Assembly: GCA_041659085.1 (NCBI GenBank)
Contig: JBAZYZ010000002.1
Coordinates: 1 to 55,662 of the forward strand
Length of the DNA: 55,662 bases
DNA from: Minisyncoccota bacterium
GTDB taxonomy: Bacteria; Patescibacteriota; Minisyncoccia; Phycocordibacterales; VMEP01
Reading direction: 5' to 3'
Of the stretch, positions 17,353-48,244 are shown piece by piece. A program made the position numbers and the translations under genes. The first letter of the stretch is position 1. The number at the start of each line of letters is the position of its first letter. A model generated the notes under the pieces. It saw only the letters and a list, made by a program, of their open reading frames with translations, did not search any database and was not told the DNA's origin.

Positions 17353-17371
17353 GGCGTGTTACAATAAGGTT

Positions 17372-17923
17372 ATGCTTTACACAAGGAAGGGAGACGCGGG
17401 GACAACCGGGACGTTCGGCTGCGACCAAAGGATATCCAAGAGTTCGGCGATAGCCGAAGCGCTCGGCGCATTAGACGAGATAAACTCGCTCCTTGGGATA
17501 TGTAAAGTGAAAACTAACGGTTTGCAGCTGACAGCTAGTAACAGAAATGCGGGAGAGGTGGTGGGTGAAGTTCAACAGAACCTTTTTATCATCCAAGCGG
17601 AGATGGCGGGAGCCGAGAAGACGATTATGAAAGAAAAAGTTGAAGCGATAGAAAAAATAATTGACGATATGGAAAAAGAGCTGCCGCCCATTACGACATT
17701 TTTTGTTTCCGGAGGGACGGAGCTCGCGTCGACATTTGATTTTGCCCGCACGCTTGCGCGCCGGGCTGAGAGACGGGTTGTTCAAGTGTCTGAAGAGGGG
17801 GATAGGAAAGTCGGCGGGCACACGCTTGCGTACCTGAACCGCCTTTCAAGCCTGCTTTATGCTCTGGCTCGTTACGCTAACCACAAAACGGGGATAGAAG
17901 AAGAAAAGCCGAGTTATAAATAA
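17372..17923 (+). CDS. ATP:cob(I)alamin adenosyltransferase, PduO type
   Basis: ATG at 17372 gives MLYTRKGDAGTTGTFG.... Helical bundle ending RTLARRAERR. Confidence 0.85.
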   Translation: MLYTRKGDAGTTGTFGCDQRISKSSAIAEALGALDEINSLLGICKVKTNGLQLTASNRNAGEVVGEVQQNLFIIQAEMAGAEKTIMKEKVEAIEKIIDDMEKELPPITTFFVSGGTELASTFDFARTLARRAERRVVQVSEEGDRKVGGHTLAYLNRLSSLLYALARYANHKTGIEEEKPSYK

Positions 17924-24072: not shown

Positions 24073-25101
24073 ATGAACAATCAAAAAACATACAGTTTCC
24101 ACGTAAAAGGAATGCATTGCAGGGCATGTACGGTATTGATTGAAAGCGAGCTTAAGGAATTGCCCGGAGTTGCGCGTGTGGAGGCGAGCTTGAGACACCA
24201 CTCCGTGGAAGTTGCCGGAAATTTTGGAAGTAGAGAGCCCGAAGATATAGCAGCCTTTTTAAGCGGGCCTATTAAGAAGCACGGATATACCCTTTCGGTG
24301 GAAAAAGAAGTTCATAGGGCCGGGTGGGGCGATTTCAGGCTTGCTGTTCCGATCGCGCTCGGGTTTGCTGTCCTGTTCGTGTTGTTGCAAAAGCTTGGTG
24401 TCGTGAACTTGGTAAACACCGGTAATGTGGGTTACGGTACGGCTTTTGTGGTCGGGCTTATTGCCTCCGTTTCGACTTGTATGGCCATTGTCGGGGGACT
24501 GGTACTTTCCATTTCCGCAAATTTTGCGAAAGAAGGCGATAAGATTCGTCCGCAAATGTTATTCCATGCGGGCCGCATCGTTTCTTTCTTTGTTTTGGGC
24601 GGGGTGATCGGAGCTCTTGGTTCGGCGTTTCAACTTGGGAGTGTCGGAGTCTTTGTTTTAAGCCTGCTTGTTGGTTTGGTTATGTTGGTATTGGGTATAA
24701 ACCTTTTGGATGTTTTCCCCTGGGCAAAGAAACTTCAACCGACAATGCCCAAGTTTTTCTCGTCTCATCTCATGGAGATTAAAAAAATTAACCACACCCT
24801 TACCCCACTCCTGGTTGGCGTGCTTACATTCTTTTTGCCATGCGGCTTCACTCAGTCAATGCAGCTTTACGCTCTTTCAACCGGCAATTTCTGGTCAGGC
24901 GCTTTGACAATGCTCTCGTTTTCTCTCGGAACGCTTCCGGTACTCGCGCTCCTGTCGTTCACTTCGCTTGGTATCCATAATAAAATGAAATCCGGCATCT
25001 TTTTCAAGACAGCCGGCTTGGTGGTTATATTTTTTGCGTTATTCAATATAATTAACAGTCTGGCGGCAATAGGGCTGATACGCCCGATTTTTAATTTCTG
25101 A
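24073..25101 (+). CDS. HMA-domain fused to a DsbD_2/TauE-like permease
   Basis: 342 aa. N-terminal GMHCRACT heavy-metal-associated domain, then 6-7 TM helices including FFLPCGFTQS. Confidence 0.7.
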   Translation: MNNQKTYSFHVKGMHCRACTVLIESELKELPGVARVEASLRHHSVEVAGNFGSREPEDIAAFLSGPIKKHGYTLSVEKEVHRAGWGDFRLAVPIALGFAVLFVLLQKLGVVNLVNTGNVGYGTAFVVGLIASVSTCMAIVGGLVLSISANFAKEGDKIRPQMLFHAGRIVSFFVLGGVIGALGSAFQLGSVGVFVLSLLVGLVMLVLGINLLDVFPWAKKLQPTMPKFFSSHLMEIKKINHTLTPLLVGVLTFFLPCGFTQSMQLYALSTGNFWSGALTMLSFSLGTLPVLALLSFTSLGIHNKMKSGIFFKTAGLVVIFFALFNIINSLAAIGLIRPIFNF

Positions 25102-28456: not shown

Positions 28457-28936
28457 ATGATGTTAGGAAAATGCGAAGGTAAATGCGAGGGGAAGTGCGG
28501 CGCACATTGCTGGTGTAAAGTTATAATCCGTGTCTTTATCGCCGCGATCTTTATTTATGCGGGTTACGGGAAATTAACCGGCATAGACGGCACAGCGGCC
28601 TATATAGCAAGCGCAGGCTTGCCTTATCCGGTATTTTTGGCATGGGCAGCAGGATTGCTTGAAGTAATCGCCGGTGTCCTTGTTGTTGCCGGATGCTGGG
28701 GTAAGCATTGCGCGGCCTGGGCTTTGATTGTCTTTACCGTTGTTGCCACTTACTTTTTCCATCTGAAGGGCGCTTTTGCCGGAGACTCTATGCAGTGGGT
28801 TCAGGTTTTGAAGAACCTGGCCGTAATTGGAGGTCTTGCAATGATTGCGGGCTGCGCCAAGTGCGGCTCTGCGGGCGGGTGCGGTTCTTGCGAAGGTGGA
28901 AAGTGCAAGAATAAGGCAAAATCCTCCGATAACTAG
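28457..28936 (+). CDS. DoxX family membrane protein with Cys-rich N- and C-terminal tails
   Basis: 159 aa. DoxX core AAIFIYAGYGKL. N-terminal tail MMLGKCEGKCEGKCGAHCWC. C-terminal tail GCAKCGSAGGCGSCEGGKCKNK. Confidence 0.75.
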   Translation: MMLGKCEGKCEGKCGAHCWCKVIIRVFIAAIFIYAGYGKLTGIDGTAAYIASAGLPYPVFLAWAAGLLEVIAGVLVVAGCWGKHCAAWALIVFTVVATYFFHLKGAFAGDSMQWVQVLKNLAVIGGLAMIAGCAKCGSAGGCGSCEGGKCKNKAKSSDN

Positions 28937-29034
28937 GGACAAAAGGGCATTAATACACAACAAAAAACCGCTGCTTGATTATGGGCGGTTTTTTGTTGCC
29001 AAGACTGCCTTATTTTTGTTATTATAGTGCCCAT

Positions 29035-29676
29035 ATGAAGCCTTCAATCATCTGGTCAATAGTAGTGATTATTCTTTTGGTTGCCGTCTTTAGCGTGGTT
29101 AAAATGGCTAAGGCTCCGGTAACGTCGGGCGTATCCGGGAGTATACCGGAAATTTCTGCTGGCGATCAAACTCGCGGACCTAAAGACTCCAAGGTTGTGG
29201 TTGTGGAGTATAGCGACTTTCAGTGTCCTGCTTGCGCCGCTTTTTTCCCGGCCGTAGACGATCTAAACAAAGAATTGGATGGCAAAATTCTTTTTGTTTA
29301 CCGAAATTTTCCTCTTCCTCAGCACCAAAATGCCGAACTGGCGGCAGAAGCGGCTGGCGCTGCGGGACTGCAGGGGAAATTCTGGGAAATGCATGACGCG
29401 CTTTTTGAAAACCAGGCTGAATGGTCGGAGTCTGGCAACGCAAAAGATTTTTTTATCAGATATGCGGGAACAGCCGGAATAAATATCGAGCAATTTAACA
29501 GGGATATTTCCTCAAGGGAAGTAAAAAATAAAATTGAGGATGATTTGAGTGGGGGATTCAAAGCTAATATTAACTCAACCCCGACATTTTTCTTGAATGG
29601 CAAGAAGATGGAGGGATTTAACTCATATGATGAATTTAAAAATCTTGTCCGAGAAGCGGTACGGAATAATTCCTAA
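29035..29676 (+). CDS. DsbA-family thiol:disulfide oxidoreductase
   Basis: ATG at 29035. Signal anchor. Thioredoxin fold with the active site FQCPAC. Confidence 0.88.
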   Translation: MKPSIIWSIVVIILLVAVFSVVKMAKAPVTSGVSGSIPEISAGDQTRGPKDSKVVVVEYSDFQCPACAAFFPAVDDLNKELDGKILFVYRNFPLPQHQNAELAAEAAGAAGLQGKFWEMHDALFENQAEWSESGNAKDFFIRYAGTAGINIEQFNRDISSREVKNKIEDDLSGGFKANINSTPTFFLNGKKMEGFNSYDEFKNLVREAVRNNS

Positions 29677-30130
29677 TATACTTGCGGGGGCTATTCTTGT
29701 GGTCGGCTTCGCCGGCTTTATAGACGCTTCATATCTGACAGCCAAGCGGATGCTTGGTTCGCCTTTAACCTGTTATTTTTTTGGCGGATGCGACGCCGTT
29801 AACGCGAGCCCTTATTCCCTGATGTTTGGAGTCCCCCTGTCGCTTTACGGCAGCATCTTTTACCTGCTCGTTGTTTTGTCTTCGGTGGCGTATCTGCAGC
29901 ATAAAAAGCCGATTTTCGGCATAGCCTTAATGATACTCACCACGCTGGGGTTTGTTTTTTCCGGCTACTTCTTGTTTCTTCAGGCGGTTATGATTAAAGC
30001 CTACTGTTTCTACTGCGTTATCTCGGTTGGAACGTCTACAACAAACTTTATCCTTATGTCTGTGGCATGGAGGAAGTATTTTTACAAGCCTGAAGTTTCA
30101 GCGTCGGTTTCTTCGGAAATTGTCGGTTAA
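29627..30130 (+). CDS. Vitamin K epoxide reductase (VKOR) family protein
   Basis: ATG at 29627. Loop cysteines LTCYFFGGC plus the membrane CXXC (CFYC). Overlaps the dsbA 3' end by 50 nt in another frame. Confidence 0.85.
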   Translation: MMNLKILSEKRYGIIPNILAGAILVVGFAGFIDASYLTAKRMLGSPLTCYFFGGCDAVNASPYSLMFGVPLSLYGSIFYLLVVLSSVAYLQHKKPIFGIALMILTTLGFVFSGYFLFLQAVMIKAYCFYCVISVGTSTTNFILMSVAWRKYFYKPEVSASVSSEIVG

Positions 30131-32614: not shown

Positions 32615-33172
32615 ATGCTTAATACCAAAGATCTTGCCGTCGCCGGCCTTTCGGCTTTTCTTGTAAGGCACGGCATCAGCACAGACTCGTGGGGCGTGGG
32701 AAATACAAAGACGCCCCGCCATCTTCTTGGCGAGGTCGTTGCCGGCGAGTGTGTCTTTGCCAGAACCGAAGACGGGAGACTGGTCAGAGAGATTTCCGTT
32801 CTAGGGCTTGATATTTTACGGGACGGCTTGGTGCTTGAAGAAGATTTCCAGCTTTTTTACGAGGATAATCGTCCGAGGAAAAGGAAGCTTGACTCGTCAA
32901 CAGGAGAAAAGCTCCTGCCGGGCGAGACACCGGAGCAGGCCTTGAACAGATTGGTTGAAGAGGAGTTTCCAATTTTGCGGCTTCAACCGAAAGAAAGTTT
33001 TCGCCGCATAGGGGAGAGGTTTAGGGAATCCGACAGCAAAAGCTATCCCGGACTCACTACTCGCTATCGGTTCCACTTTTTTGCCGTGGAGCTCTCAATG
33101 GAACTTCCGCCGATCACTGTTCAGGAGTCCGATAAGCTTGTGGCCTATAAGTGGGTACCTCGTCAGGGCTAA
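32615..33172 (+). CDS. Hypothetical protein with a degenerate Nudix-like box
   Basis: 185 aa. GEKLLPGETPEQALNRLVEEEF approximates GX5EX7REUXEEXGU with one extra residue. Otherwise unrecognised. Confidence 0.4.
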   Translation: MLNTKDLAVAGLSAFLVRHGISTDSWGVGNTKTPRHLLGEVVAGECVFARTEDGRLVREISVLGLDILRDGLVLEEDFQLFYEDNRPRKRKLDSSTGEKLLPGETPEQALNRLVEEEFPILRLQPKESFRRIGERFRESDSKSYPGLTTRYRFHFFAVELSMELPPITVQESDKLVAYKWVPRQG

Positions 33173-33333: not shown

Positions 33334-33993
33334 TTACAAAAAATTCTCCAGGTCAAGCAAAAAAGGAAGCTGCGGGCAATCTACGCCTACGTCCTTTTCC
33401 GTTATATTTACCAAAATGCTTTTTATGCCCAGTTTTTTCGGCACTTCATAGTCACTCATAATACGGTCACCAATGTAAAGAAACTGTTCAACGGGGAAAT
33501 TATAATATGAAAGCCATAGGGAGTAGGCTGACCCGTCGGATTTTGAAACATCATCTCCGGTGATGATGTGGTTAAACAATTCTTCCGGTATTTTTAGCGC
33601 GGAAAGTTTTTTCTCGGCGTTTGACCGGTCAGAGCCGGTGATAAGGTCCAGTCCCGCGTAACGCGATTTCAAATTATTCAGAAATACCAGAACCTTTTCA
33701 TCTTCCGGGGTAAGTACTGACGCAATATCCGCCCTTTCCAGCGCTTCCTGGACAATTTCCTTGCCATTTGGAACCTCCAGAGCCAGGAGTGTTTTGCTGC
33801 CGCTTAATCCCTTTCCGCCTAGGTAAATGTCTGTAAAGAGCTTCTTTGCTTCCGGCAGGGAAACGTTTTTGTGGCAGGCGATTTTTTGATAAATATATTG
33901 CTGTATTTTTTCGTCAACCTCAGGCATTTTGGGGTACAGGGTCTGATCAAGGTCAAAGCCTATAACTTTAATTTTTGTTTTGTAGTCAATCAT
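33334..33993 (-). CDS. HAD-superfamily phosphatase
   Basis: 219 aa. Motif I IGFDLDQTLY (DxDxT). Motif IV YIGDRIMSDY. Last gene of the four-gene operon. Confidence 0.8.
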   Translation of the reverse strand: MIDYKTKIKVIGFDLDQTLYPKMPEVDEKIQQYIYQKIACHKNVSLPEAKKLFTDIYLGGKGLSGSKTLLALEVPNGKEIVQEALERADIASVLTPEDEKVLVFLNNLKSRYAGLDLITGSDRSNAEKKLSALKIPEELFNHIITGDDVSKSDGSAYSLWLSYYNFPVEQFLYIGDRIMSDYEVPKKLGIKSILVNITEKDVGVDCPQLPFLLDLENFL

Positions 33994-34005: not shown

Positions 34006-36417
34006 TTACTTGGTGAAGGCAACATAAAAAAGCGAAAGGTTGCCTAGCGGGTACCCTAATGTTTCGCTGTATTTTGTCGCGATATAATTTAATAGATTTA
34101 TATCTTCCTTTTGCTTGCCTATTGAGTGATTCATAAACACGGCCGTAGCATGGACCTTGTCGCCCATCACGTTTGCCTGAAAGTATGCCAGATAGTCTCC
34201 CTGCGGGTCCATTTTGCCCGCTTTGTACTCGGTTAGAATCGGGTTGTTATGCATTACGCCTTTTTCTTTGAGGTAGGAAACCGCTTTTTCAATCGTGTTT
34301 ACACCTTCCATATTCTCCAGCCGGCCGAGAATTGGGTTATTCGGGCGGGAAGTTATTTTTTGGAGCGGAAGGAAGCAATAGGCAACACCAGTTTCGTTTG
34401 CTTTAGGAACCTTGGCGTTTTCCGCTAACTGATGCGGTCCGCTCTTTGAATCAATTTCATCCGCCGGTTTGGATGGCTCACCCATTAATTTTTTAGTCCG
34501 CTGCTCTTCGGTCAAAAGAAGTATGTTTGCCCGGCTTGAAAGCATATACATGTCCCCCGGTTTCGCGTGAAGCTCGTCCCTCACCGTAGAAACATAAGCG
34601 TCATATAGGCCGAAGACATTTTCCGGATAAGCGTTCACTGTATTGTGGGCGCGGGCGATGTGGAATGAATGCAGGCGCCCGTCCTCTAGGAAAAAGATGT
34701 CGTGAGTTAGGCACGGGTCGTGCGTGTATTTTGTTTTGCCGGTATCGGGGTCAACATAACTTTTCATATCTTCCACCGGGTCAAAACGCTGTATGATTGC
34801 CGCGCGGTTCGGATTTTCGCGGAGGACAAGCGCGGTTTTCGGCAGCTGGTCAAAGCCGAAGAAAACACGCGTCCGTTCGCCGTAGCTATAATCTCCGTCG
34901 TGGTCAAAGCGGAGCAGTTGGGCTTTGTAGGCGCTCCGTATCTCTTCCGTGCTCCGTTCTCCCTGCTTATACAAGGCTGGGAGGGAAGACAGGGACTTCT
35001 CCGTGTTGCGGTAGATTGCGAGCATTACGGCGGAGCGGGCCAATCCTTTTTGCTTGTCTCCATGCTCTTCGGTCAATCCCTGGGTGTATATTTTCATAAG
35101 GACTTGTTTGTGGACGTCTAAGAAATTATCTCCGTCGGCTATAAGCAAGGGCAGATTTTCCGTATTGATTTTGAAAATGTTCGCGAAATCCTGGATGAAC
35201 GCATAATCAAGCGAGGCGGCGATGGCGGCCCGCCCGATTTGCCCGCCGATGTCCAGCCTGTGCAGGATATCCATCTCGTAGTTTTCAAAGCGGTTTTTCT
35301 CAGCTATCCATTCAAAGAGTCCGCCGATTTTCGGGGAGCGGAGTTCAAAGACCTGTTCGCAGACATCAAAGGCCAGGCACATTACCGCCACCTGACCCGC
35401 TTTAACATTTATTTTGTAGTAATATTTCTTGTCGGTGATAAGGGAAATTTTTGATTCAAGCATTATTTCTTTTTCCCCGGCAATATTTCCGGATTTTACG
35501 AAAGAAGGGAATTTAATTTCGTTTTTTATTTCTGAACTTACCCGGGCAAGCTCGGCTCCGAGATATAGCTGGTCCAGTTGGCTGATTTCTTTTTTGCGTT
35601 CGCCCAGGAATTTCATCAGAGAATATTCCAAGAGGAAATCATCCGTGCTTTTTATGAAAAATGTTTCTTCTCCCAACTTGATATCAAGGCGCAATACTCC
35701 TTTTTCATTTTGTACCCGGAAAGTAACTTCGGGGATTATCTCTTTTGCCGGGATGGCTACTTTTGGCGGCTGGAGGTGCTGGAATTCTTTCGGGTCAAGC
35801 TCAACAACGCCGCGTTTTGCGGGTTCAGAGGCTCCAAGCAGCGAGACGAGTTTGTTAAGCGAGTCGTAATATATCTTTCCTTTTTCGTTCACTTCTTTTA
35901 AGAATTCATATACTTCGTCCGGCAGTCTGGGGCGCGCCCATAGAAGATAGTCCATAATGATTTTCTTGCCGTAATCATTTCTGTACATGAACATCGGCAG
36001 AACGGTTATATTTTCTCGGAAAGAATCTACGATTTCGCCGGAAAGGTTCGGATAATGCGACGAGGCGGCTCTGCCGTTTACTATGGGGTGGTCACGGTCT
36101 TCTGTGTTTACTCCATACTGGAGCGCCAGAAGCAGGTTTGTGCTCGGAGAGAATGTCAGCGATTCCTCGGAGAAGAGTATGAGATATGCGAGTGTCGGGT
36201 GAGAGAGCGAATTGAGTATCATTCTCTCGGCCCCGTCCCGGCTCACAATGAGCGAGCCTAAGACTGAGACGAAGCGGCGCTCTTTGCCTTCAAGCTCGTT
36301 TAAGACTTGGCCGGGGGCGGTGGTGTTGGTGCATATGCCTATAAAACCATCCTTGCCTTCGGGGGGGGTGAGAAGTATCGCGTCCACTATGGGGAATTGG
36401 GGGGTTTTTGCGGTCAT
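34006..36417 (-). CDS. Multidomain protein with a thymidylate-synthase/dCMP-hydroxymethylase-fold catalytic core (803 aa)
   Basis: ATG at 36415-36417 (MTAKTPQFPIV...) lies 16 nt after the upstream stop; the track ORF start at 36498 overlaps the upstream gene. ThyA-like motifs are YSYGERTR, NPNRAAIIQRFDP, DPCLTHDIFFLEDGRLHSFHIARAHN, YPEN and GDMYMLSS. Confidence 0.7.
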   Translation of the reverse strand: MTAKTPQFPIVDAILLTPPEGKDGFIGICTNTTAPGQVLNELEGKERRFVSVLGSLIVSRDGAERMILNSLSHPTLAYLILFSEESLTFSPSTNLLLALQYGVNTEDRDHPIVNGRAASSHYPNLSGEIVDSFRENITVLPMFMYRNDYGKKIIMDYLLWARPRLPDEVYEFLKEVNEKGKIYYDSLNKLVSLLGASEPAKRGVVELDPKEFQHLQPPKVAIPAKEIIPEVTFRVQNEKGVLRLDIKLGEETFFIKSTDDFLLEYSLMKFLGERKKEISQLDQLYLGAELARVSSEIKNEIKFPSFVKSGNIAGEKEIMLESKISLITDKKYYYKINVKAGQVAVMCLAFDVCEQVFELRSPKIGGLFEWIAEKNRFENYEMDILHRLDIGGQIGRAAIAASLDYAFIQDFANIFKINTENLPLLIADGDNFLDVHKQVLMKIYTQGLTEEHGDKQKGLARSAVMLAIYRNTEKSLSSLPALYKQGERSTEEIRSAYKAQLLRFDHDGDYSYGERTRVFFGFDQLPKTALVLRENPNRAAIIQRFDPVEDMKSYVDPDTGKTKYTHDPCLTHDIFFLEDGRLHSFHIARAHNTVNAYPENVFGLYDAYVSTVRDELHAKPGDMYMLSSRANILLLTEEQRTKKLMGEPSKPADEIDSKSGPHQLAENAKVPKANETGVAYCFLPLQKITSRPNNPILGRLENMEGVNTIEKAVSYLKEKGVMHNNPILTEYKAGKMDPQGDYLAYFQANVMGDKVHATAVFMNHSIGKQKEDINLLNYIATKYSETLGYPLGNLSLFYVAFTK
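34504..35136 (-). other. ThyA-fold domain within the 803-aa protein (catalytic Cys codon at 34711-34713)
   Basis: Motif-by-motif correspondence to E. coli ThyA, detailed in the findings. The Cys codon was verified on the sequence (gca on plus = TGC on minus, in the context D-P-C-L-T-H). Confidence 0.6.
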
Positions 36418-36433
36418 ATTTTTGACATGAGTT

Positions 36434-37318
36434 CTACCATTTTTTACTGGACCATTGGTTAGGCAGCAGTTCATCCAAAGTATATTGTTTGAATTCATCG
36501 GTATCTTTGGCGAAACAGTACAGATTTATGCTCAAATCGTATTTGGAACTTATTTCAGCCAAAAACTGTCGGCAACATCCGCATATTTCACAGGGTGTGT
36601 CGGTAAATTTAGTGGACACCAAACCGAGCGCGACAATTTTTGTCTTTCCGTCCATAAGGGCGAGAATTGGCGCTGCCATTTCGCTGTGTATGCCGCCACG
36701 TTTTTCAAAACTGGAATATTGTCCAGAATAATATATTACGCTGTCTTCCGTAAGCACTGCCGTACTGTAAGCACTGGCGTTGTTGTAGGTATGGAAGCAT
36801 TTGCCCAGACCCTCCACGGCGTATTTTTTTAGCTGGTCCGGTACCGGAATACTGGTTTGAAATGGCGCCTTAGATTCCGATGGGACGGCCCCCTTCACTT
36901 TCTCCAAGATATTTTGATGTGGCTTATAAAAAGGAATTATTTCGGTTACTTTTGGCACCGAAAATATTTCCTTCCCGTCAATATTTACGACCCGATATTT
37001 TATTTCTCCACCCGTGCGGACGCAAAAATCAATCATGGTTTTTACCGTAAACGGATTTACTATGAATCCTTCATCTTTTTCAACCAATGTTACGACTTCT
37101 TCCACCAGGTAGTCGCTGTGGGCTACCGCCAAAAGAAGGGCGGACTGTTCCGAAGAAATATTTAGTAGGTTAGTGTCGGAGTCAATGTTTGCTCCGCGGT
37201 ATTTTCGGCCGCTTTTTGAATAAGCTACAGTGGATGTCCTGCTGCCTACCCCAACCACTGTCTTTTTAGCAACGGCTAGCGCAAGCCCGTCTTTTAAATA
37301 AGATAGTTCATCAACCAT
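36434..37318 (-). CDS. Tandem cytidine/deoxycytidylate-deaminase-fold protein (degenerate N-terminal domain, catalytic C-terminal domain)
   Basis: 294 aa. The C-terminal domain has HSE (H211, E213) and PCEIC (C243, C246) zinc and catalytic motifs, followed by GCCRQF. The N-terminal domain keeps only SSEQSA and has no PCxxC. Confidence 0.75.
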   Translation of the reverse strand: MVDELSYLKDGLALAVAKKTVVGVGSRTSTVAYSKSGRKYRGANIDSDTNLLNISSEQSALLLAVAHSDYLVEEVVTLVEKDEGFIVNPFTVKTMIDFCVRTGGEIKYRVVNIDGKEIFSVPKVTEIIPFYKPHQNILEKVKGAVPSESKAPFQTSIPVPDQLKKYAVEGLGKCFHTYNNASAYSTAVLTEDSVIYYSGQYSSFEKRGGIHSEMAAPILALMDGKTKIVALGLVSTKFTDTPCEICGCCRQFLAEISSKYDLSINLYCFAKDTDEFKQYTLDELLPNQWSSKKW

Positions 37319-37319
37319 A

Positions 37320-38213
37320 TTATAGATTGCTTCTTAGTTTGCTGACGCTCAGCTGAGCCACTTCCCAATCATAATGAAGGGTTTTTTTGATGAAGTCATT
37401 CAAGAGGTGGATCTTGTCTCTTTCAAGACGGGGATACATCTTCTCCGATTTCTTGCTGGTTAATCTGATAGTGGGAACGAAAGATACGGGGAAAGCGTAA
37501 TACGGCAGAAGCGGATGCCTTTCCGATTCGGGCTCTACCAGTATGGCGGTGATGGGTTTACCTAGTTTTTCTATGGCGTAATCAATGCGGTGCGCTCCGT
37601 CGCAGACGATGTAGAAGTCTTGCTTGCCGGTGTATCTTAGCCCGTAGTTTATAATCGGCGCGTTTGAATTGAAGACATCCAGATAATCAAGTTTGCTGAC
37701 TTCGTCAATGTAGAATGAATTCAGGAATCTTTTTGAAAGATTGTGCAGGTTATTGCGCGCGTCGGCTGTATACGTATCCGCGAATCGCTTGCTTATTTTA
37801 TCAAGGTCAAGATACCCCGCCCTCAGTTCATAGGTATGTTTCTCAATAATAGGCGGCAATATGTGGAAATCACCGCGCCCCTCCCAATTATATTGCAACC
37901 CGTTTTTCAAATCGTTTATCCGCATTTTGTGCGCGCGGAGAAACTTATCCACGGTATCAAAAACTTCCAGCTGATTTTCATATATTGTCGGTTGGGGGGT
38001 AAAGAGGTTGTGTCTTTTGTCGTCAACGGCTATTTTGGGCGATTGCCCTATTTTCTGGGGTGGATGTATTGTGACTAATTTGAATTTCGCTTTTGCGTAT
38101 GGTTTTAGCGCCGTGCCCTTCTTGTCAAAGAGCCCACGGAAGGCTACTTTCCGCATCATGGACGTAAGTTGGTCAAAGGGAATGACTCCTTTCAAGACTA
38201 GCTTTTCTTTCAT
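37320..38213 (-). CDS. ParB/sulfiredoxin-fold domain protein
   Basis: 297 aa. FYIVCDGAHRIDYAIEKLG carries DGxHR, with codons 37587-37601 verified on the sequence. Its stop is 1 nt from the next gene's start. Confidence 0.6.
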   Translation of the reverse strand: MKEKLVLKGVIPFDQLTSMMRKVAFRGLFDKKGTALKPYAKAKFKLVTIHPPQKIGQSPKIAVDDKRHNLFTPQPTIYENQLEVFDTVDKFLRAHKMRINDLKNGLQYNWEGRGDFHILPPIIEKHTYELRAGYLDLDKISKRFADTYTADARNNLHNLSKRFLNSFYIDEVSKLDYLDVFNSNAPIINYGLRYTGKQDFYIVCDGAHRIDYAIEKLGKPITAILVEPESERHPLLPYYAFPVSFVPTIRLTSKKSEKMYPRLERDKIHLLNDFIKKTLHYDWEVAQLSVSKLRSNL

Positions 38214-38305: not shown

Positions 38306-38734
38306 ATGAAAATAACCTTAAGAGTTAAGCGTCTTTCGGAGGAGACAAAGTTGCCTGCGTATGCGTATCCGGGGGACGCGGCATTTGACTTATTGGCCGT
38401 GGAAGAGGCGGGACTTGCGCCCGGAGAAAGGAAAGATATTCCCACCGGACTCTCTATTGAGATTCCTGAAGGTTACGCCGGGCTTATCTGGGACAAAAGC
38501 GGAATAGCAATCAAGAATGGCGTTAAAGTGCTGGGCGGCGTTATAGATGCCGGTTACCGCGGCGAGGTCAGAGTAGGGGTTGTAAACTTGAGCGAAGAGC
38601 CTTATGTGTTTGAAAAAGGACATAAAGTCGCGCAGATGATCATTCAGAAGATTGAGCAGGCGGACATTGTTGAGGTGGAAGAATTGAGCGAGACCGACAG
38701 GGGGGGCAGGGGTTTTGGCAGTTCCGGAAAATAA
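38306..38734 (+). CDS. dut: dUTP diphosphatase (trimeric dUTPase)
   Basis: ATG at 38306 gives MKITLRVKRLSEETKLPAYAYPGDAAFDL.... Also GVIDAGYRGEV and RGGRGFGSSG motif V. Confidence 0.92.
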   Translation: MKITLRVKRLSEETKLPAYAYPGDAAFDLLAVEEAGLAPGERKDIPTGLSIEIPEGYAGLIWDKSGIAIKNGVKVLGGVIDAGYRGEVRVGVVNLSEEPYVFEKGHKVAQMIIQKIEQADIVEVEELSETDRGGRGFGSSGK

Positions 38735-38744
38735 TTTGAAACAA

Positions 38745-39932
38745 ATGAAAGACGGGCAAGTCAAAAGGCTTATTAAGGAAGAGGAGGGCAGACAGAAGTC
38801 CGTTGTGAATTTGATTGCCTCGGAAAACTACGTATCCCGGGATGTATTAGAGGCACTGGGTTCGGTTTTAACAAACAAATACTCCGAAGGGTATCCGGGC
38901 AAGAGATATTATGGCGGGAACACTGTCGTTGACAGGGTTGAGAGATTGGCGGGCGAAAGGGCTCTGAAACTTTTTGGCCTGGCTCATGGTAAATGGCATG
39001 TGAATGTTCAGCCGCTTTCCGGTTCGCCGGCTAATCTGGCTGTTTATGTCGCGCTTGTCCCACCAGGCGGGAAAATTATGGGAATGACTTTGTCCGAAGG
39101 GGGACACTTGACTCACGGGCACAAAGTTTCGGTTACCGGAAAATTTTGGAAACAAGTGCCGTTTGGCGTTGACCCAAAAACGGAAACTATAAATTATAGC
39201 GAGATTAAAAAGATTGCGCTCAAGGAAAAGCCGAGTATCATTGTCGCCGGATTTACGGCTTACCCGCGCGTGATTGATTTCAAAAAATTTCGCGATATCG
39301 CCCGGGCCGCAGGCGCGCTTCTGATGGTGGACATGTCGCACTTTGCCGGGCTTGTAGCCGGAGGCGCTTACCCGTCGCCATTTCTTTACGCTGATATTGT
39401 TACGACAACGATGCACAAGACGCTTCGCGGGCCAAGGGGCGCGATGATTTTTGTCCGCCGGCAAAAGACGAAAGAAGGCAAAGAAATGAGCGAGCTCATA
39501 GACAGGGCGGTATTTCCCGGACTCCAGGGTGGCCCCCATGACAATCAGACTGCGGCAATAGCGGTGGCGCTTAAAGAAGCCGGCACCCCATCTTTCAAAA
39601 TATATGCCAAGCAGGTGGTAAAAAACGCGAGAGCGCTCTCGGATGAACTGAAAAATCTCGGCTGGAAAATAATTTCCGGCGGGACGGACAGCCATTTGAT
39701 TTTGATGGACGTCTGGATGGGTGGAAGAGGTTTAAGCGGAAGTGAAGCCAGCAACAGACTGGAGAAGGCGGGCATCATCGTCAATAAAAATACAATCCCC
39801 GGGGAAACCCGCTCGGCTTTTGACCCCTCCGGCATACGGCTCGGCACTCCGGCCGAGACGACACTGGGCAAAAAGGAGAAAGACATGATAAAAATCGCCC
39901 GAAAAATTGATTCGGTTTTGAGGGGGAAATAG
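38745..39932 (+). CDS. glyA: Serine hydroxymethyltransferase
   Basis: ATG at 38745 (a TTG at 38715 would overlap dut). LIASENY, VQPLSGSPAN, TTTMHKTLRGPRG with the PLP lysine. Confidence 0.93.
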   Translation: MKDGQVKRLIKEEEGRQKSVVNLIASENYVSRDVLEALGSVLTNKYSEGYPGKRYYGGNTVVDRVERLAGERALKLFGLAHGKWHVNVQPLSGSPANLAVYVALVPPGGKIMGMTLSEGGHLTHGHKVSVTGKFWKQVPFGVDPKTETINYSEIKKIALKEKPSIIVAGFTAYPRVIDFKKFRDIARAAGALLMVDMSHFAGLVAGGAYPSPFLYADIVTTTMHKTLRGPRGAMIFVRRQKTKEGKEMSELIDRAVFPGLQGGPHDNQTAAIAVALKEAGTPSFKIYAKQVVKNARALSDELKNLGWKIISGGTDSHLILMDVWMGGRGLSGSEASNRLEKAGIIVNKNTIPGETRSAFDPSGIRLGTPAETTLGKKEKDMIKIARKIDSVLRGK

Positions 39933-41592: not shown

Positions 41593-44500
41593 ATGGAAGA
41601 AAAGCATAAAGAGAAGAATTCACGGGAAGTAAAAAAATCAGAAGTGGCGCTTGCGGAAGAGCGCATTTTGGCCAATTGGCAAAAAAAAGGGATACATCAA
41701 AAAATTATGGATAAAACCCGTGAGGGGAAGCCGTTTGTTTTTTATGATGGACCGCCTTTTGCCACCGGCGAGCCGCATTACGGGCATGTTCTGGCGGGGA
41801 CCATTAAGGATACAATCCCAAGGTATCGGACCATGATGGGGCATTATGTAAGGCGGCAGTGGGGTTGGGATTGTCATGGTTTGCCGCTTGAAAACATAAT
41901 TGAAAAAGAGCTAAAGCTTGAGCACAAGAAAGACATTGAGGAATATGGCATAGAAAATTTCAACGAAGCGGCGCGTAAAGCGGTTCTACGCTTTGATTCA
42001 AACTGGAAAGAAATAATTCCCCGGATGGGGCGGATGGTGGATATGGACTTGTCGTATAAGACGATGGACGCCACTTATAGCGAATCAATCTGGTGGGCTT
42101 TTAAGACGCTTTACGACAAAGGCTTGATATATGAGGGGCATAAAATAATGTACGTTTGCCCGAGGTGCGAAACGCCTCTCGCTCAGATTGAGGTCGCTCA
42201 GGGTTATAAAGACGTGACTGACATATCCGTTACTGTGAAGTTTGAATTGTCCGCCGATCCGGGGGTTTACCTGCTCGCTTGGACCACGACGCCGTGGACA
42301 TTGCCCGGGAATACGGCGCTTGCTGTTAATCCCGACATTGAGTACGTGAAAGTAAGGGTTGACGGGGAATACTATATTTTGGCCAAGGACCGTCTTTTAA
42401 TACTGAATACCGAATACGAGATACTGAGCACCTTCCATGGACGCGAACTCGTTGGCAAATCATATATTCCTCCGTTTGATTATTATGTGAATGATAACGA
42501 AATTGAAAACCACAACAGAGGTTGGAAAATTTACGGCGCGGATTTCGTAACCGCGGACAGCGGCACCGGCATCGCCCACGAAGCTCCGGCTTTCGGCGCT
42601 GAGGATATGGAGCTCTCAAAAAAGGAAAATATTCCGGTCATTCAGCATGTCTCCATGGACGGCAAGTTTAAACCGGAGGTGAAGGATTTCGCGGGACAAT
42701 ACGTGAAGCAGAAAGGGGACACCCAATCAGCAGACATAGAAGTAATAAAATATTTGGCGCATAAAGGCTTACTGTTCAGCAAAGAAAAAATTGTTCACTC
42801 GTATCCCTTGTGCTGGAGATGCGACACTCCGCTTCTAAACTACGCCACTCCGTCTTGGTTTGTGAAGACGACGGCTATAAGCGATAGAGTAGTTTCAGAA
42901 AATAAGAAAGTTGGCTGGATCCCGGAGCATATAGGCGGTGGACGCTTTGGCAAATGGCTTGAGAACCCGCGCGACTGGGCGATTTCCCGTTCCAGGTTCT
43001 GGGGTGCTCCGCTTCCCATATGGAAATGCGCCGAATGCGAAAAAGTCGACGCTTTCGGAAGCGTGGCTGAGCTTTCGGAGAAGGTTCCCCCGTCCGGTAA
43101 TCGCTATATCGTTATCCGGCACGGTCAGTCTGAAAGCAATGCTTTGGGCATGGTCAACTGTGACCCATTCAAGGAGGACCATGTGACGGACAAAGGCAGA
43201 GGGCAGGTAGAAGAGGCGGCAGAACAGTTAAAAAAGGATGGGATAAAAATAGACAGGATCATCTCGTCGGATTTTATGCGTACCCGCGAAACCGCGGAGA
43301 TGGTTGCCGAAATACTTGACGTTCCCGCCGAACACATTGTTTTTGACCCGCGGTTCCGCGAGATAAACACAGGTATCTTCCACGACAAAACTCGCGCCGA
43401 ATATCATGATTTCTTCGTTTCATACGCCGAAAAATTTAAAAAGACGCCGAAGGGAGGAGAAAATTTGCTTGATGTGAAGCGACGCGTTCTCCTGGGTGTC
43501 GGAGACCTTGAAAAAACTTATCGCGGCGAGACAATACTTATTGTCACTCACGAATATGCGGCTTGGATGCTCGCTTCTGCGGCTAAGGGCGCCACAATAG
43601 AGGAGTCTGTCCGGATGAAAAGCGAACGTGGGGAGGATTTTCTGGGGAATGCCGAAACAGAAGAACTAAAATGGAAGCTTATACCGAGGAACAGGGTGGG
43701 CGAGCTTGATTTGCACCGCCCGTATATAGACGAGATTGTTTACGACTGTTCCTGTGGCGGAACGATGAGGCGAATCCCCGACGTGTTTGACTGCTGGTTT
43801 GAGTCCGGTTCCATGCCCTATGCCCAGTTCCACTATCCGTTTGAGAACGAGAAGGAGTTCAGAAGGAATTTCCCGGCTGATTTTATCGCCGAAGGGATGG
43901 ACCAGACTCGCGGCTGGTTTTACAGCCTGCTGATTCTGGGTGTCGGGCTTTTCGGCGAGTCGCCATACAAAAATGTCATCGTAAACGGAATTATTCTCGC
44001 TGAAGACGGGCAGAAGATGTCCAAGCGCCTGAAGAATTATCCCGACCCGATTGAAGTGGTCAACAGATACGGGGCCGACTCCCTGCGCTACTTCCTTTTG
44101 TCGTCTCCTCTTATGCGTGGTGAGGACGTAAGCTTTTCGGAGAAAGGAGTGGATGAGGTCTATAAGAAAAATATCGCTCGTTTGAATAATGTTTATGCTT
44201 TTTATGAACTCTATCGCGGAGCGGAAGAGGGGAATGCGGATTCAAAAAATATTTTGGACAGATGGATTTTGGCAAGACTGAGTCAGATGATTAACGAAAC
44301 AACCTCCGCGCTGGATTCATATGAGCTCGACAGGGCTACAAAGCCAATCGGCGAATTTATAGACGACCTTTCCACGTGGTATATACGGCGTTCACGCGAA
44401 CGGTTCAAGGGGGATGACGAGGCGGATAAAAAATCCGCGCTTGAGACGACAAATTACACGCTTATGGAACTTTCAAAAGTCGTCGCGCCGTTTATGCCGT

Positions 44501-45057
44501 TTATCGCCGACGACTTGTATCTGAAAGTGGCTGGCGGCAAAAAAGAGGAGAGTGTGCATCTAGAGAAGTGGCCGGAAGCGAAGGAATTAAATGATGAAAG
44601 CAGGGAAATAATAGAGGAAATGAGAAAAGCTCGAGAGGTTGTTTCATTGGGACTGGAAGAGCGTGCTAAGCATGGAATTAAAGTACGGCAACCCCTTCGC
44701 ATGTTAAGTACAACAGCTGCTTTTTCTGACGGGTATAATATTATTATTGGGGAGGAGCTCAATGTTAAAGAGGTCAAGTGGGACAAGAATCTGCCTACCA
44801 TTCTCGCACTTGATGTTGAAATTACTCAGGAACTCAAAGAAGAGGGCAACGTGCGCGACATAATCCGCGCCATTCAGGAATTCAGGAAGAATGAGGGACT
44901 TACTCCAAATGATAAAGTGGCCATTGAAATTTCCGCGCCCAAAGAAACAATCGCGCTTGTTGAAAAACACGGAGGGGAACTTAAAAAAGCCGCCATGCTT
45001 ACGGGCATAGAGGTCAAAACAGGAAAAGAGATTTCTTTTGTTGTCTTGAGAAAATGA
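41593..45057 (+). CDS. ileS: Isoleucine--tRNA ligase (type 2) carrying an inserted histidine-phosphatase domain
   Basis: 1154 aa. PPFATGEPHYGHVLAG (HIGH), CP1 editing domain TTPWTLPGN, KMSKRLKN. About 200 extra aa lie between PIWKCAEC and DLHRPYID. Confidence 0.93.
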   Translation: MEEKHKEKNSREVKKSEVALAEERILANWQKKGIHQKIMDKTREGKPFVFYDGPPFATGEPHYGHVLAGTIKDTIPRYRTMMGHYVRRQWGWDCHGLPLENIIEKELKLEHKKDIEEYGIENFNEAARKAVLRFDSNWKEIIPRMGRMVDMDLSYKTMDATYSESIWWAFKTLYDKGLIYEGHKIMYVCPRCETPLAQIEVAQGYKDVTDISVTVKFELSADPGVYLLAWTTTPWTLPGNTALAVNPDIEYVKVRVDGEYYILAKDRLLILNTEYEILSTFHGRELVGKSYIPPFDYYVNDNEIENHNRGWKIYGADFVTADSGTGIAHEAPAFGAEDMELSKKENIPVIQHVSMDGKFKPEVKDFAGQYVKQKGDTQSADIEVIKYLAHKGLLFSKEKIVHSYPLCWRCDTPLLNYATPSWFVKTTAISDRVVSENKKVGWIPEHIGGGRFGKWLENPRDWAISRSRFWGAPLPIWKCAECEKVDAFGSVAELSEKVPPSGNRYIVIRHGQSESNALGMVNCDPFKEDHVTDKGRGQVEEAAEQLKKDGIKIDRIISSDFMRTRETAEMVAEILDVPAEHIVFDPRFREINTGIFHDKTRAEYHDFFVSYAEKFKKTPKGGENLLDVKRRVLLGVGDLEKTYRGETILIVTHEYAAWMLASAAKGATIEESVRMKSERGEDFLGNAETEELKWKLIPRNRVGELDLHRPYIDEIVYDCSCGGTMRRIPDVFDCWFESGSMPYAQFHYPFENEKEFRRNFPADFIAEGMDQTRGWFYSLLILGVGLFGESPYKNVIVNGIILAEDGQKMSKRLKNYPDPIEVVNRYGADSLRYFLLSSPLMRGEDVSFSEKGVDEVYKKNIARLNNVYAFYELYRGAEEGNADSKNILDRWILARLSQMINETTSALDSYELDRATKPIGEFIDDLSTWYIRRSRERFKGDDEADKKSALETTNYTLMELSKVVAPFMPFIADDLYLKVAGGKKEESVHLEKWPEAKELNDESREIIEEMRKAREVVSLGLEERAKHGIKVRQPLRMLSTTAAFSDGYNIIIGEELNVKEVKWDKNLPTILALDVEITQELKEEGNVRDIIRAIQEFRKNEGLTPNDKVAIEISAPKETIALVEKHGGELKKAAMLTGIEVKTGKEISFVVLRK
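43090..43700 (+). other. Histidine phosphatase (PGAM/CobC-like) domain inserted in IleRS
   Basis: RYIVIRHGQSESN (RHG codons 43117-43125, in frame). ...ISSDFMRTRETA... ILIVTHEYAAWML is the second catalytic His motif. Confidence 0.75.
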
Positions 45058-46279: not shown

Positions 46280-48244
46280 ATGCTTGACCACAACAGAAAG
46301 AATGGCAGTGATTCCATAGAAGAGCTAAAAAAGCGACTTTATGCGCGCGGTAGTATGGGCAGAAGGTCTCTCAGGAAGGGCGGGCTTGAAGAACACGAAG
46401 AAGATATCGGCAGTGAGTGGAAAAAAGACGCTTTAATCTATTCAAACGAGTCTGATGAACCCACCGAGGAAAAAATAAGAATGGGAACATTTAAAAAATT
46501 TTTTATAGCATCATCCATATTTTTTATGATGGCTTTGGCATACGCGGCCTACCAGTTTCTTGGCGGCGGAAATATCGTTTCGGCCAAAAATATAAATATA
46601 ACGGTATTCGGCCCGTCATTTGCCTCGGGAGGGGATGAGATTTCTCTGCAGGTTTCTGTTGAGAACCGCAACAATGTCCCGCTTGAATTTGCGGAAATTT
46701 TGATAGAGTACCCGAGAGGAGCAGCAAGCGCTAACGCTTCCTCCACTTTGGATTTAGTCAGAAAACAAATCACACTCAAGAAAATTCCCGCGGGTGGGAC
46801 TCATCAGGAGGTGGTTAAGGTTGTGCTATACGGAGAAGAGGGCGGGCAGCAAAACATAAAGTTTACATTGGAATACCGGACACAAGGTTCCAACGCGATT
46901 TTCCAAAAAGAAAGCATTTACCCGGTTAAAATAAGTTCTGCGCCCATTAATCTTTTTTTGGATTCTCCGAAAGAGGTTAACTCTGGGCAAAATCTTTCCC
47001 TTAGGATAAAAGTATCGTCAAATGCCCCCAAAGACGTGGCTGATGTTCTGCTGGGAGTTGATTACCCTCCTGGATTTTTGTTTAAGACATCCGATCCTGC
47101 GCCGACATACGGTAATAATGTCTGGCGTTTGGGAGATTTCCACACAGGAAGTGACAGGGCGATTTCCATAACAGGCGTTCTCTCCGGTGAAAACGGGGAA
47201 GATCGGACCTTTCGCCTGCTCACAGGCTCCGCTTCTGTGGACGATGAGAAGACTATTGGCGTAATTTATAATTCTGTTTTTCAGACAATTTCCATAAAAC
47301 GCGCGTTTTTGGATGCCGTGGTGTATCTGAACGGAGACTCCGCTCAAAAACAAAATATGGCTGTTCCTTCAGGTCGTGAGGTGGTCGGCTCTTTAGTGTG
47401 GCGTAATAATTTGCCGACACGAATAACTAACGCCGAAATAAGTTTGAAATTTTCCGGCAACGCCATTGACCGCAGCACCATCTCATCCCAAAACGGGTTT
47501 TACAATTCTTCGGAGGGCACGCTTGTATGGAACATGAATAACTACGGCAATTTCCAGGTAATTGAACCCGGGGAAACAGGCCAGTTCCCGTTTTATTTCA
47601 GACCGCTACCGCTCTACTCGTCCCAAAATGGCATGTTAAACGAGCCACAGGTGGTTATTGAAACGACGGTAAAGGGCAATGTCAACACAAGCAACGCCGG
47701 CGGAGGAGATGTTTCCGTCACCACAAGCAATGTTGCCAAAGTTTTGTCTGATTTGCAGGTTCTTTCGCGGGCTGCGTATTTTTCCGGCTCATTAAATAAT
47801 ACCGGGCCGATACCGCCGGTCGCGGAAAAGGAAACTACATACACAGTCTCTTGGAGCGTTATGAATTCGGCCAATGATGTTACCGGCGCTTCAATCACTA
47901 CAGTTTTGCCGCTGTATGTCGGCTGGGCTAACCAGGTTTCTTCCGCCAACGAAGATGTTTCTTATGACGTGACAAGCCGCAAGGTAACTTGGCGGTTGGG
48001 TACGGTGTCTTCCGGAACAGGATACGGAAGCGTCGCCCGCGAAGTGAGCTTTCAGGTCAGGCTTACTCCCTCCATCCAGCATGTCGGGAATTGGGTTAAC
48101 CTTACCGGAGACACGGTTCTTTCCGGAGTTGATTCATTTGCCAAAGAATCGATAGAGAGCGTTAAAAATCCGCTTACCACGATTTTAAGCAACGATTCCG
48201 GTTTCAGAACCGGCGATGAAATTGTAATGCCGCCGTCAAAATGA
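46280..48244 (+). CDS. Large membrane-anchored surface protein (repeated beta-sandwich-like modules)
   Basis: 654 aa. Charged N-terminus, one TM helix (FFIASSIFFMMALAYAAYQFL), then a Ser/Thr/Asn/Val-rich ectodomain. Coordinates are taken from the ORF track. Confidence 0.55.
   Translation: MLDHNRKNGSDSIEELKKRLYARGSMGRRSLRKGGLEEHEEDIGSEWKKDALIYSNESDEPTEEKIRMGTFKKFFIASSIFFMMALAYAAYQFLGGGNIVSAKNINITVFGPSFASGGDEISLQVSVENRNNVPLEFAEILIEYPRGAASANASSTLDLVRKQITLKKIPAGGTHQEVVKVVLYGEEGGQQNIKFTLEYRTQGSNAIFQKESIYPVKISSAPINLFLDSPKEVNSGQNLSLRIKVSSNAPKDVADVLLGVDYPPGFLFKTSDPAPTYGNNVWRLGDFHTGSDRAISITGVLSGENGEDRTFRLLTGSASVDDEKTIGVIYNSVFQTISIKRAFLDAVVYLNGDSAQKQNMAVPSGREVVGSLVWRNNLPTRITNAEISLKFSGNAIDRSTISSQNGFYNSSEGTLVWNMNNYGNFQVIEPGETGQFPFYFRPLPLYSSQNGMLNEPQVVIETTVKGNVNTSNAGGGDVSVTTSNVAKVLSDLQVLSRAAYFSGSLNNTGPIPPVAEKETTYTVSWSVMNSANDVTGASITTVLPLYVGWANQVSSANEDVSYDVTSRKVTWRLGTVSSGTGYGSVAREVSFQVRLTPSIQHVGNWVNLTGDTVLSGVDSFAKESIESVKNPLTTILSNDSGFRTGDEIVMPPSK

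Follow-up and report, generated by a model that had tools for sequence, protein, structure and literature searches.

The gene designated g3 lies on the minus strand of a 55,662-nucleotide stretch of DNA from a Minisyncoccota bacterium (contig JBAZYZ010000002.1 of assembly GCA_041659085.1, positions 1 to 55,662; referred to below as the window) and encodes an 803-residue protein that probably serves as thymidylate synthase in this organism and in many bacteria of the candidate phyla radiation (CPR) and DPANN archaea, a reading to which we assign a probability of about 0.6. The assignment is based on a ThyA fold, on catalytic residues that are invariant throughout the family, on a genomic context that includes dUTPase (dut) and serine hydroxymethyltransferase (SHMT) genes, and on positional equivalence with the dcd-thyA-tmk clusters of other CPR bacteria. 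The chain is modular and comprises, from its N-terminus, an MtrA-like domain, two DUF4346-like repeats, a ThyA catalytic domain and a second ThyA half that lacks the Cys (Table 1).

The open reading frame that holds g3 extends from 34006 to 36498 on the minus strand and would encode 830 residues. We place the start at the ATG at 36417, because the upstream gene ends at 36434 and the homologues begin at the equivalent position; the same evidence upholds the 803-residue product (34006-36417) of the original prediction, which was made from the sequence without database searches. Residue numbers on the 803-residue g3 equal those of that prediction minus 27, and its Cys596 is Cys569 here (codon 34711-34713). 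The AlphaFold model of g3 was built on an alignment of 36 family members, termed A1 (predicted local distance difference test 83.9; predicted template modelling score 0.71), and conservation was taken from an alignment of 39 bacterial and 11 archaeal full-length sequences, across which 94 positions are invariant.

Evidence for a ThyA domain comes from both sequence profiles and structure. The best sequence-family match of g3 is NCBIfam TIGR03283, the methanogen-type thymidylate synthase (E 1.1e-13, residues 432-606), and Pfam PF00303 (Thymidylat_synt) matches six of the 36 family members, the best of them at E 3.6e-5. Profile alignment with hhalign of A1 against E. coli ThyA, a sequence entered by hand, places residues 515-662 on ThyA residues 93-243 (E 0.0023) and reproduces the motif register of the ThyA-like core that the original prediction had put forward, while the catalytic domain aligns with the ThyA domains of related fusion proteins at 99.9% probability (E 1.4e-33). 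When the AlphaFold model is searched against the PDB with Foldseek, 402 matches are returned at E<=1e-3, and the top 50 all have the ThyA fold, so that the comparison with ThyA structures proposed at the outset comes out in favour of the fold. The template modelling (TM) scores of these top 50, normalized to the target, range from 0.5 to 0.72, with a TM of ~0.6 to E. coli ThyA. The list is headed by AfhB, a flavin-dependent dCMP hydroxylase from a phage (9iqu, E 8e-10, TM 0.72), followed by the viral, human and E. coli ThyA enzymes.

In ThyA, Cys146 is the nucleophile, Arg166 binds the phosphate and Asn177 selects uracil, while Asp169 contacts the folate and His207 and Tyr209 bind the 3'-OH of the deoxyribose. 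The first three of these residues are kept in g3 as Cys569, within the motif D-P-C569-L, Arg589 and Asn600, as had been predicted, and Tyr94 is kept as Tyr512; each is invariant in all 50 sequences. The contacts that are not kept are weighed with the alternatives below.

ThyA is normally an obligate homodimer, in which each subunit inserts a loop bearing Arg126 and Arg127 into the active site of its partner. Profile comparison indicates that residues ~690-803 of g3 are a degenerate, Cys-less ThyA half homologous to ThyA, which bears out the earlier suspicion of a second copy in the last ~130 residues. Residues 695-800 align with the ThyA domains of 30 related proteins of 390-600 residues at 96.9% probability (E 1.3e-10, 104 columns), and the alignment runs through the YG-R-R loop, the DQ helix, the hairpin that normally bears the Cys, the long helix and the last strand; control hhalign comparisons with other g3 domains give probabilities of <1%. 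The C-terminal profile of g3 also matches the ThyA domain of one such relative (P0172), and in the AlphaFold model the strand-strand-helix-strand order occurs twice. A direct profile-profile comparison between the C-terminal half and the catalytic domain of g3 yields only weak alignments of short fragments, which are collinear (E 0.018 and 0.0097), and the homology is significant only via the intermediate family of 390-600-residue fusions. In the second half the residue at the Cys position (742) varies among the sequences, and Met762 takes the place of Arg166. Its loop His723-Asn724-Asn725 (34243-34251), which replaces the Ser-Arg-Arg loop, is invariant, and the catalytic half's own loop positions 538 and 539 are variable (R, K, Q, L and others, then A, P or T). 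A variable loop in the live half together with an invariant loop in the dead half would be expected of a dead half that supports the one live site, since the live-half loop would point into a dead site and be free to vary. The g3 chain is most likely a pseudo-dimer with one active site, in which the dead half would pack sheet to sheet against the live one.

The N-terminal domain resembles MtrA. Pfam MtrA (PF04208) matches g3 at E 0.005 (16.9 bits, cut-off 25) and matches 30 of the 36 family members at E<=1, the best at E 5.9e-7, NCBIfam NF002126 matches g3 at E 6.5e-6, and the family profile matches the MtrA structures 8q3v and 5laa over ~95 residues (E 7e-4). An MtrA-like N-terminal domain had been anticipated, and these matches support it, but its description as an MtrA-type methyl-pterin transferase does not hold, as MtrA is the corrinoid-binding subunit and its cobalt ligand is absent from g3. 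In MtrA, His84 is the lower axial ligand of the cobalt and is hydrogen-bonded to Glu54, and the protein has a GAIPF(Y/F)xEN meander (PMC4915002). The His84 position in the g3 family is occupied by Phe89 (codon 36151-36153), invariant in 50 of 50 sequences, the Glu54 position holds Ser or Asn, and neither the meander motif nor Thr53 is kept; the equivalents of Gly57 and Asn64 are invariant. With Phe at the His84 position, canonical cobalamin binding by this domain was judged unlikely, and these residues likewise suggest that g3 is unlikely to bind a corrinoid in the classical mode. Elsewhere in the window, positions 17264-17923 (plus strand) encode a PduO-type ATP:cob(I)alamin adenosyltransferase (PF01923, E 6.6e-44), which implies that the organism handles corrinoids and so bears on any corrinoid hypothesis for the MtrA-like module.

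Between the MtrA-like domain and the catalytic domain, the helical linker (residues 148-214) has no family match and is followed by the two DUF4346-like repeats. Repeat 1, which the model builds from three strands and then two helices, aligns with the DUF4346 tails of MtrA-ThyA-DUF4346 proteins at 87.2% (E 3.8e-6), and repeat 2 aligns with the DUF4346 tails of relatives at 93.6% (E 2.2e-7), in agreement with the two repeats that had been proposed. Pfam PF14251 matches the repeat-2 region in relatives (P0150, E 0.0023; P0165, E 3.3e-6), and an archaeal member of the family (from locus L049) matches it at E 1.7e-4 with 22.8 bits against a cut-off of 29.6; g3 itself has no PF14251 match, and 3 of the 36 members match at E<=1. 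The direct profile-profile comparison of repeat 1 with repeat 2 is not significant (E 0.11), and the homology of the repeats, too, is significant only via the intermediate 390-600-residue fusion family. Overall, g3 does not reach the curated cut-off of any of the three families (ThyA, MtrA and DUF4346).

The remote relatives through which these homologies are established form ~45 clusters of 390-600-residue proteins with strong Pfam matches to MtrA, Thymidylat_synt and DUF4346, and occur in Woesearchaeota, Wolfebacteria and Thermoprotei. In Wolfebacteria, dcd is followed by a 519-residue MtrA-ThyA fusion, which carries the NCBI name 'thymidylate synthase'. In other CPR bacteria, such as Nealsonbacteria, the components are split, with a gene for a 286-294-residue MtrA-DUF4346 protein directly upstream of a gene for a 257-258-residue ThyA, the pair being flanked by dcd and tmk or deoC and the cluster adjoining NusG and L11 (L059, 5001-6737; L061, 4436-8315; L063, 4406-7161). 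The cassette that contains g3 occupies the same NusG/L11 neighbourhood. The stand-alone MtrA-DUF4346 protein keeps the corrinoid signature (Thr53, Glu54, Gly57, Asn64, the 'KGH' His84 and a GxxPF meander), an example with His84 being the product of L061 5001-5885, and most fusions have Phe or a deletion at the His84 site; in one further protein (P0354), DUF4346 is fused to a pterin-binding (MeTr/DHPS-like) domain. Fused or split, the MtrA/DUF4346 module thus accompanies ThyA repeatedly in clusters for the synthesis of deoxythymidine monophosphate (dTMP), and g3 is its most derived predicted form, in which the His is lost, DUF4346 is duplicated and the ThyA half is duplicated. No paper on the pairing of a corrinoid protein with ThyA in such split clusters was found in the open-access literature.

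Full-length homologues of g3 share 43-86% identity, the nearest being in metagenome-assembled genomes of Patescibacteria/CPR. A scan of 1.84 billion representative proteins gives only 84 matches at E<=1e-3, with about nine full-length clusters at 50% identity, so the ~800-residue family is compact and highly conserved. Among GTDB species genomes, it occurs in Saccharibacteria, many lineages of Parcubacteria (Kaiser-, Nomura-, Zambryski-, Vogel- and Sungiibacteria, Paceibacterota), Peribacteria and Gracilibacteria, and, at 43-47% identity, in DPANN archaea (Woesearchaeota, Nanoarchaeia, Iainarchaeum); locus L040 carries the archaeal PolD and is thus genuinely archaeal. Most entries are named 'hypothetical protein', while some from the Joint Genome Institute are called 'thymidylate synthase' or 'thymidylate synthase/tetrahydromethanopterin S-methyltransferase subunit A'. 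The original prediction regarded such a fusion as unseen, and this has to be given up, since the ~800-residue family is spread widely among CPR bacteria and DPANN archaea and shorter fusions and split pairs exist. It also named, as a possible refutation, a common and already annotated family of known function; the family is indeed common, but no paper demonstrating a function was found, and searches of the open-access literature found no description of this architecture, of DUF4346, of an MtrA-ThyA pairing or of any thymidylate synthase of unusual type from CPR or DPANN organisms. A phage base-modification locus was considered as the source of g3 and ruled out, because the window belongs to the cellular genome of a CPR bacterium and has genes for NusG, L11, ArgRS, IleRS, MetRS, SSB and S6 and seven tRNA genes.

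The genes around g3 form a cassette, g1-g2-g3-g4, whose order and strand are the same in bacteria and archaea. Over 55 non-redundant loci, the HAD phosphatase g4 is present in 49, the ParB/Srx-like g1 and the cytidine-deaminase-like g2 in 48 each, dut beside the cassette in 19, an adjacent SHMT gene in 15 and an adjacent NUDIX homologue in 14. Pfam Parb-CE matches g1 in 32 of 32 members (best E 2.4e-8), with a DGxHR motif; the protein is conserved between CPR and DPANN at E ~1e-100, and its AlphaFold model (pLDDT 83, pTM 0.85) has no significant Foldseek neighbour in the PDB or BFVD, the structural search giving short sulfiredoxin/ParB-N motifs only, nor does g1 have a sequence match in the PDB. 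The g2 profile matches the cytidine deaminase of B. subtilis (1ux1, E 2.3e-14) and TIGR01354 (E 4.5e-12), and its C-terminal half is of the tetrameric type, with a zinc site of His211, Cys246 and Cys249 and a catalytic Glu213, all invariant. Thus g2 is itself a fused pseudo-dimer: the N-terminal deaminase half is degenerate and has SSEQ where the H/C-A-E motif would stand, and the C-terminal half is the catalytic one. For g4, Pfam HAD_2 gives E 2.2e-11, and TIGR01993, a pyrimidine 5'-nucleotidase family, E 1.1e-10, which is below the cut-off of that family. The dUTPase gene was located by tblastn, in which E. coli Dut aligns at 38330-38713 (E 3e-18). A tblastn survey of the window and 58 loci, for which the ThyA and FolA of E. 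coli and the ThyX of T. maritima were entered by hand as queries, found no homologue, and thus no canonical thyA or thyX in any g3 flank, which counts in favour of g3 as the synthase, the loci being flanks and not whole genomes; the same survey recovered dut and one tmk. In the DPANN (Nanoarchaeia) locus L040, a NUDIX gene of the SMODS-associated type lies on the opposite strand between g2 and g3 (5176-5883, minus strand), an insertion that echoes the NUDIX neighbour of many CPR loci.

Table 1. Features of g3 and its surroundings, with coordinates given as positions in the window.
Feature	Coordinates	Strand	Basis or remark
g1: 297-aa ParB/Srx-like protein, motif DGAHR, first cassette gene	37320..38213	-	Pfam Parb-CE
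g2: 294-aa cytidine-deaminase-like protein	36434..37318	-	1ux1 profile match, TIGR01354, conservation
g3: MtrA-like / 2x DUF4346 / ThyA / pseudo-ThyA protein, 803 aa	34006..36417	-	Stop codon 34006-34008
g3, MtrA-like Rossmann domain, aa 1-147	35977..36417	-	Pfam MtrA, NF002126, PDB profile
g3, helical linker region, aa 148-214	35776..35976	-	AlphaFold helices 148-164, 167-179, 184-195
g3, DUF4346-like repeat 1, aa 215-302, motif YLGAELARV	35512..35775	-	hhalign, model secondary structure
g3, DUF4346-like repeat 2, aa 318-405, motif LDIGGQIGRA	35203..35466	-	hhalign, Pfam in relatives
g3, short (archaeal-type) ThyA catalytic domain, aa 415-650	34468..35175	-	TIGR03283, hhalign, Foldseek; nucleophile Cys569
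g3, predicted degenerate second ThyA half (pseudo-subunit), aa 690-803	34009..34350	-	hhalign, C-terminal profile, conservation
g4: 219-aa HAD-family phosphatase, pyrimidine-5'-nucleotidase-like	33334..33993	-	Pfam HAD_2, TIGR01993
dUTPase (dut), divergent from cassette; start approximate	38306..38734	+	tblastn with E. coli Dut
Serine hydroxymethyltransferase (glyA), divergent from cassette	38715..39932	+	Pfam SHMT, E 3e-160
NUDIX hydrolase, convergent with g4	32615..33172	+	Pfam NUDIX, E 6.2e-7

Serine hydroxymethyltransferase is a source of methylene-tetrahydrofolate. In the mechanism that we propose, Cys569 of the catalytic domain would attack C6 of a uracil nucleotide, likely deoxyuridine monophosphate (dUMP) supplied by the adjacent dUTPase and by a g1/g2 deaminase branch, and a one-carbon unit would then be transferred to C5, with methylene-tetrahydrofolate from the adjacent SHMT as the likely donor. 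The dead ThyA half would stand in for the homodimer partner, leaving one active site per chain, with its His723-Asn724-Asn725 loop taking the place of the partner's Arg-Arg loop at the live site. The MtrA-like domain and the DUF4346 repeats would descend from the separate MtrA-DUF4346 protein that is encoded beside thyA in other CPR bacteria, and may serve as an accessory of the synthase, in the handling of the cofactor or one-carbon donor or in a structural role, without classical His-on ligation of a corrinoid. As Dcd holds the equivalent upstream position in the split clusters, g1 and g2, together with dut or the NUDIX hydrolase, may replace it. Domain homologies, residue conservation and gene context are what the data show, and from them we infer the substrate, the one-carbon donor, the geometry of the pseudo-dimer and the role of the N-terminal module; because several dUMP and folate contacts are replaced, altered chemistry has to be weighed as well.

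Several observations weigh against a thymidylate synthase. The match of g3 to TIGR03283 scores 51.1 bits, below the threshold of 174.55, and the Pfam check envisaged by the original prediction succeeds only in part, since PF00303 has no match in g3 at E<=1 and it is TIGR03283 that covers residues 432-606. Sequence searches of the PDB with g3 alone or with the family profile gave weak MtrA matches and no ThyA, and for this reason the ThyA fold was recovered there by structure comparison. Within the active site, Ser167 of E. coli ThyA is replaced by Ala590 in 49 of 50 sequences, Asp169 by an invariant Asn592, His207 by an invariant Asn631 and Tyr209 by an invariant Leu633, the Glu58/Trp80/Trp83 region has no alignable counterpart, and Arg126' and Arg127' of the partner loop correspond to Asn724 and Asn725. 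Lastly, a nucleotidase (g4) and a nucleoside-type deaminase (g2) are poorly explained in a dTMP pathway, and their place in it is unclear. The loss of the His and Tyr that hold the deoxyribose 3'-OH had been recognized before, and was taken as a hint at a different sugar or substrate; the loss is real and such replacements leave room for that idea, but the dUTPase and SHMT genes that adjoin the operon do not favour it. In its full form, the idea is that g3 is a ThyA-fold enzyme with another substrate or product, be it uridine monophosphate, a deoxyuridine nucleoside or a hydroxymethylated base, and that the HAD phosphatase releases the modified nucleoside. Asn631, Leu633 and Asn592 would then be meaningful as invariant replacements, as would the change of the Arg-Arg phosphate clamp to His-Asn-Asn; g2 resembles the nucleoside-type cytidine deaminases and not the dCMP deaminases, the nucleotidase-like HAD protein is the last cassette gene in those 49 of 55 loci, and the best structural neighbour, the phage flavin-dependent dCMP hydroxylase (9iqu/9iqc), has other chemistry. 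Yet dUTPase and SHMT recur as neighbours, the position of g3 is equivalent to that of the dcd, thyA and tmk clusters of other CPR bacteria, the cassette is near-universal in genome-reduced organisms that need dTMP, and the uracil-selecting Asn is invariant, and we consider a changed substrate unlikely. A role for g3 as a relic of ThyA, without catalysis or with a regulatory part such as sensing nucleotides or scaffolding the cassette enzymes, would fit the many replaced canonical contacts and the scores below family thresholds, but is highly improbable, as bacterial and archaeal sequences with an overall identity of 43-47% agree without exception at the equivalents of the Cys, Arg166, Asn177 and Tyr94 and at ~90 further positions, and as relaxed catalytic constraint is seen in the dead half and not in the live one.

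A further explanation concerns the chemistry itself, with the MtrA-like/DUF4346 module using a corrinoid or another cofactor to deliver a methyl group or reductant, such that tetrahydrofolate is not oxidized to dihydrofolate and the enzyme is a third type beside ThyA and ThyX. The stand-alone MtrA-DUF4346 protein directly upstream of thyA keeps the full corrinoid signature (residue roles from PMC4915002), the fusion of DUF4346 to a pterin-binding domain in P0354 fits the logic of three-component corrinoid methyltransferases, the window encodes the PduO-type adenosyltransferase, and the folate-contacting Asp169 is lost in g3. In g3, however, an invariant Phe stands in for the His ligand, and Thr53, Glu54 and the meander are missing; many fusions carry a deletion at the His84 site, the cassette has neither a pterin-binding TIM-barrel gene nor MetF, and the adjacency of SHMT points to methylene- rather than methyl-folate. 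CPR genomes, moreover, commonly carry folA, glyA and folD, which counts in favour of the main reading, and the frequency of folA also speaks against this chemistry (PMC11974145), which we regard as very unlikely for g3. A broader form of the idea, in which MtrA/DUF4346 marks an unrecognized thymidylate route that joins a ThyA-fold domain to a cofactor carrier (either a donor of the methyl-corrinoid type or a reductant other than folate, which would relieve the need for dihydrofolate reductase, DHFR), with the synthase as a single-chain, one-site pseudo-dimer and the carrier corrinoid-competent in the split systems and His-less in the fused ones, is quite unlikely as well.

If g3 is a thymidylate synthase, it is not a new kind of system, but an unusual variant of ThyA, of which the partner module, the pseudo-dimer design and the cross-domain cassette are apparently undescribed. 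It shares with ThyA (EC 2.1.1.45; PF00303; TIGR03283) the fold, the order of motifs, the Pro-Cys, Arg166, Asn177 and Tyr94, and departs from it at Ser167, Asp169, His207, Tyr209 and Arg126'/127'; whereas ThyA has 200-320 residues and a homodimer partner, g3 has 803 residues, a fused dead half and three additional N-terminal domains. Also close are the MtrA-ThyA-DUF4346 fusions (~420-540 residues; DPANN, CPR and Thermoprotei), which contain the three domain families also predicted in g3, with Pfam E-values of 1e-27 to 1e-35 for MtrA, 1e-10 to 1e-21 for ThyA and 1e-15 to 1e-20 for DUF4346, and many of which have Phe at the His84 position as g3 does. Unlike g3, these fusions have the domains in that order, contain DUF4346 only once and lack a second ThyA half; their Arg-Arg, Arg-Ser-x-Asp and His-x-Tyr motifs are the canonical ones, and they adjoin dcd, while g3 sits in the g1-g2-g4 cassette; they are uncharacterized and named automatically as 'thymidylate synthase' or 'DUF4346 domain-containing protein'. 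The split CPR system (an MtrA-DUF4346 protein of ~290 residues and a ThyA of ~257) is like g3 in its components, its neighbourhood and its presumed pathway, but consists of separate polypeptides, of which the MtrA part keeps His84 and the ThyA is presumably a normal homodimer. With the MtrA of the methyl-tetrahydromethanopterin:coenzyme M methyltransferase (5laa, 5l8x, 8q3v), g3 appears to share the Rossmann-like domain, with equivalents of Gly57 and Asn64, and it lacks the His84, Glu54, GAIPFxEN meander and membrane anchor of the methanogen protein. The bifunctional DHFR-thymidylate synthases of protozoa and plants similarly place a folate-cycle domain N-terminal to the synthase, and are among the top structural matches (6pf6, 7fgx) through their synthase part; g3 has no match to DHFR (PF00186), however, and those enzymes are homodimers of complete synthase domains.

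Thymidylate synthase is a well-studied enzyme and drug target, and is regarded as an obligate homodimer with two non-independent sites. A natural, widely conserved form in which a single chain joins a live half to a dead one, if confirmed, would be a ready system for studying the asymmetry of the enzyme. The domains of the g3 family are already recognized by annotation pipelines, and automated 'thyA' pathway calls in such genomes rest on the predicted activity of this family. The pairing of ThyA with an MtrA-like/DUF4346 module would provide a first functional lead for DUF4346 and for MtrA homologues outside the methanogens, and a cassette shared at 43-47% identity between ultra-small bacteria and archaea bears on the synthesis of DNA precursors in these symbionts and on gene exchange between the two groups.

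Other features of the window lie apart from the cassette. Positions 46280-48244 (plus strand) hold a 654-residue open reading frame with no Pfam family at E<=1e-4. The 1154-residue isoleucyl-tRNA synthetase (41593-45057, plus strand) has a His_Phos_1 domain at residues 506-675, between the halves of its catalytic core (Pfam E 1.8e-28). A cluster at 28457-30130 (plus strand) encodes DoxX, a DsbA-like thioredoxin and VKOR, which are proteins of disulfide-bond formation, and is preceded by genes for a copper/heavy-metal P-type ATPase (21102-23405) and for an HMA-DsbD_2 protein (24073-25101).

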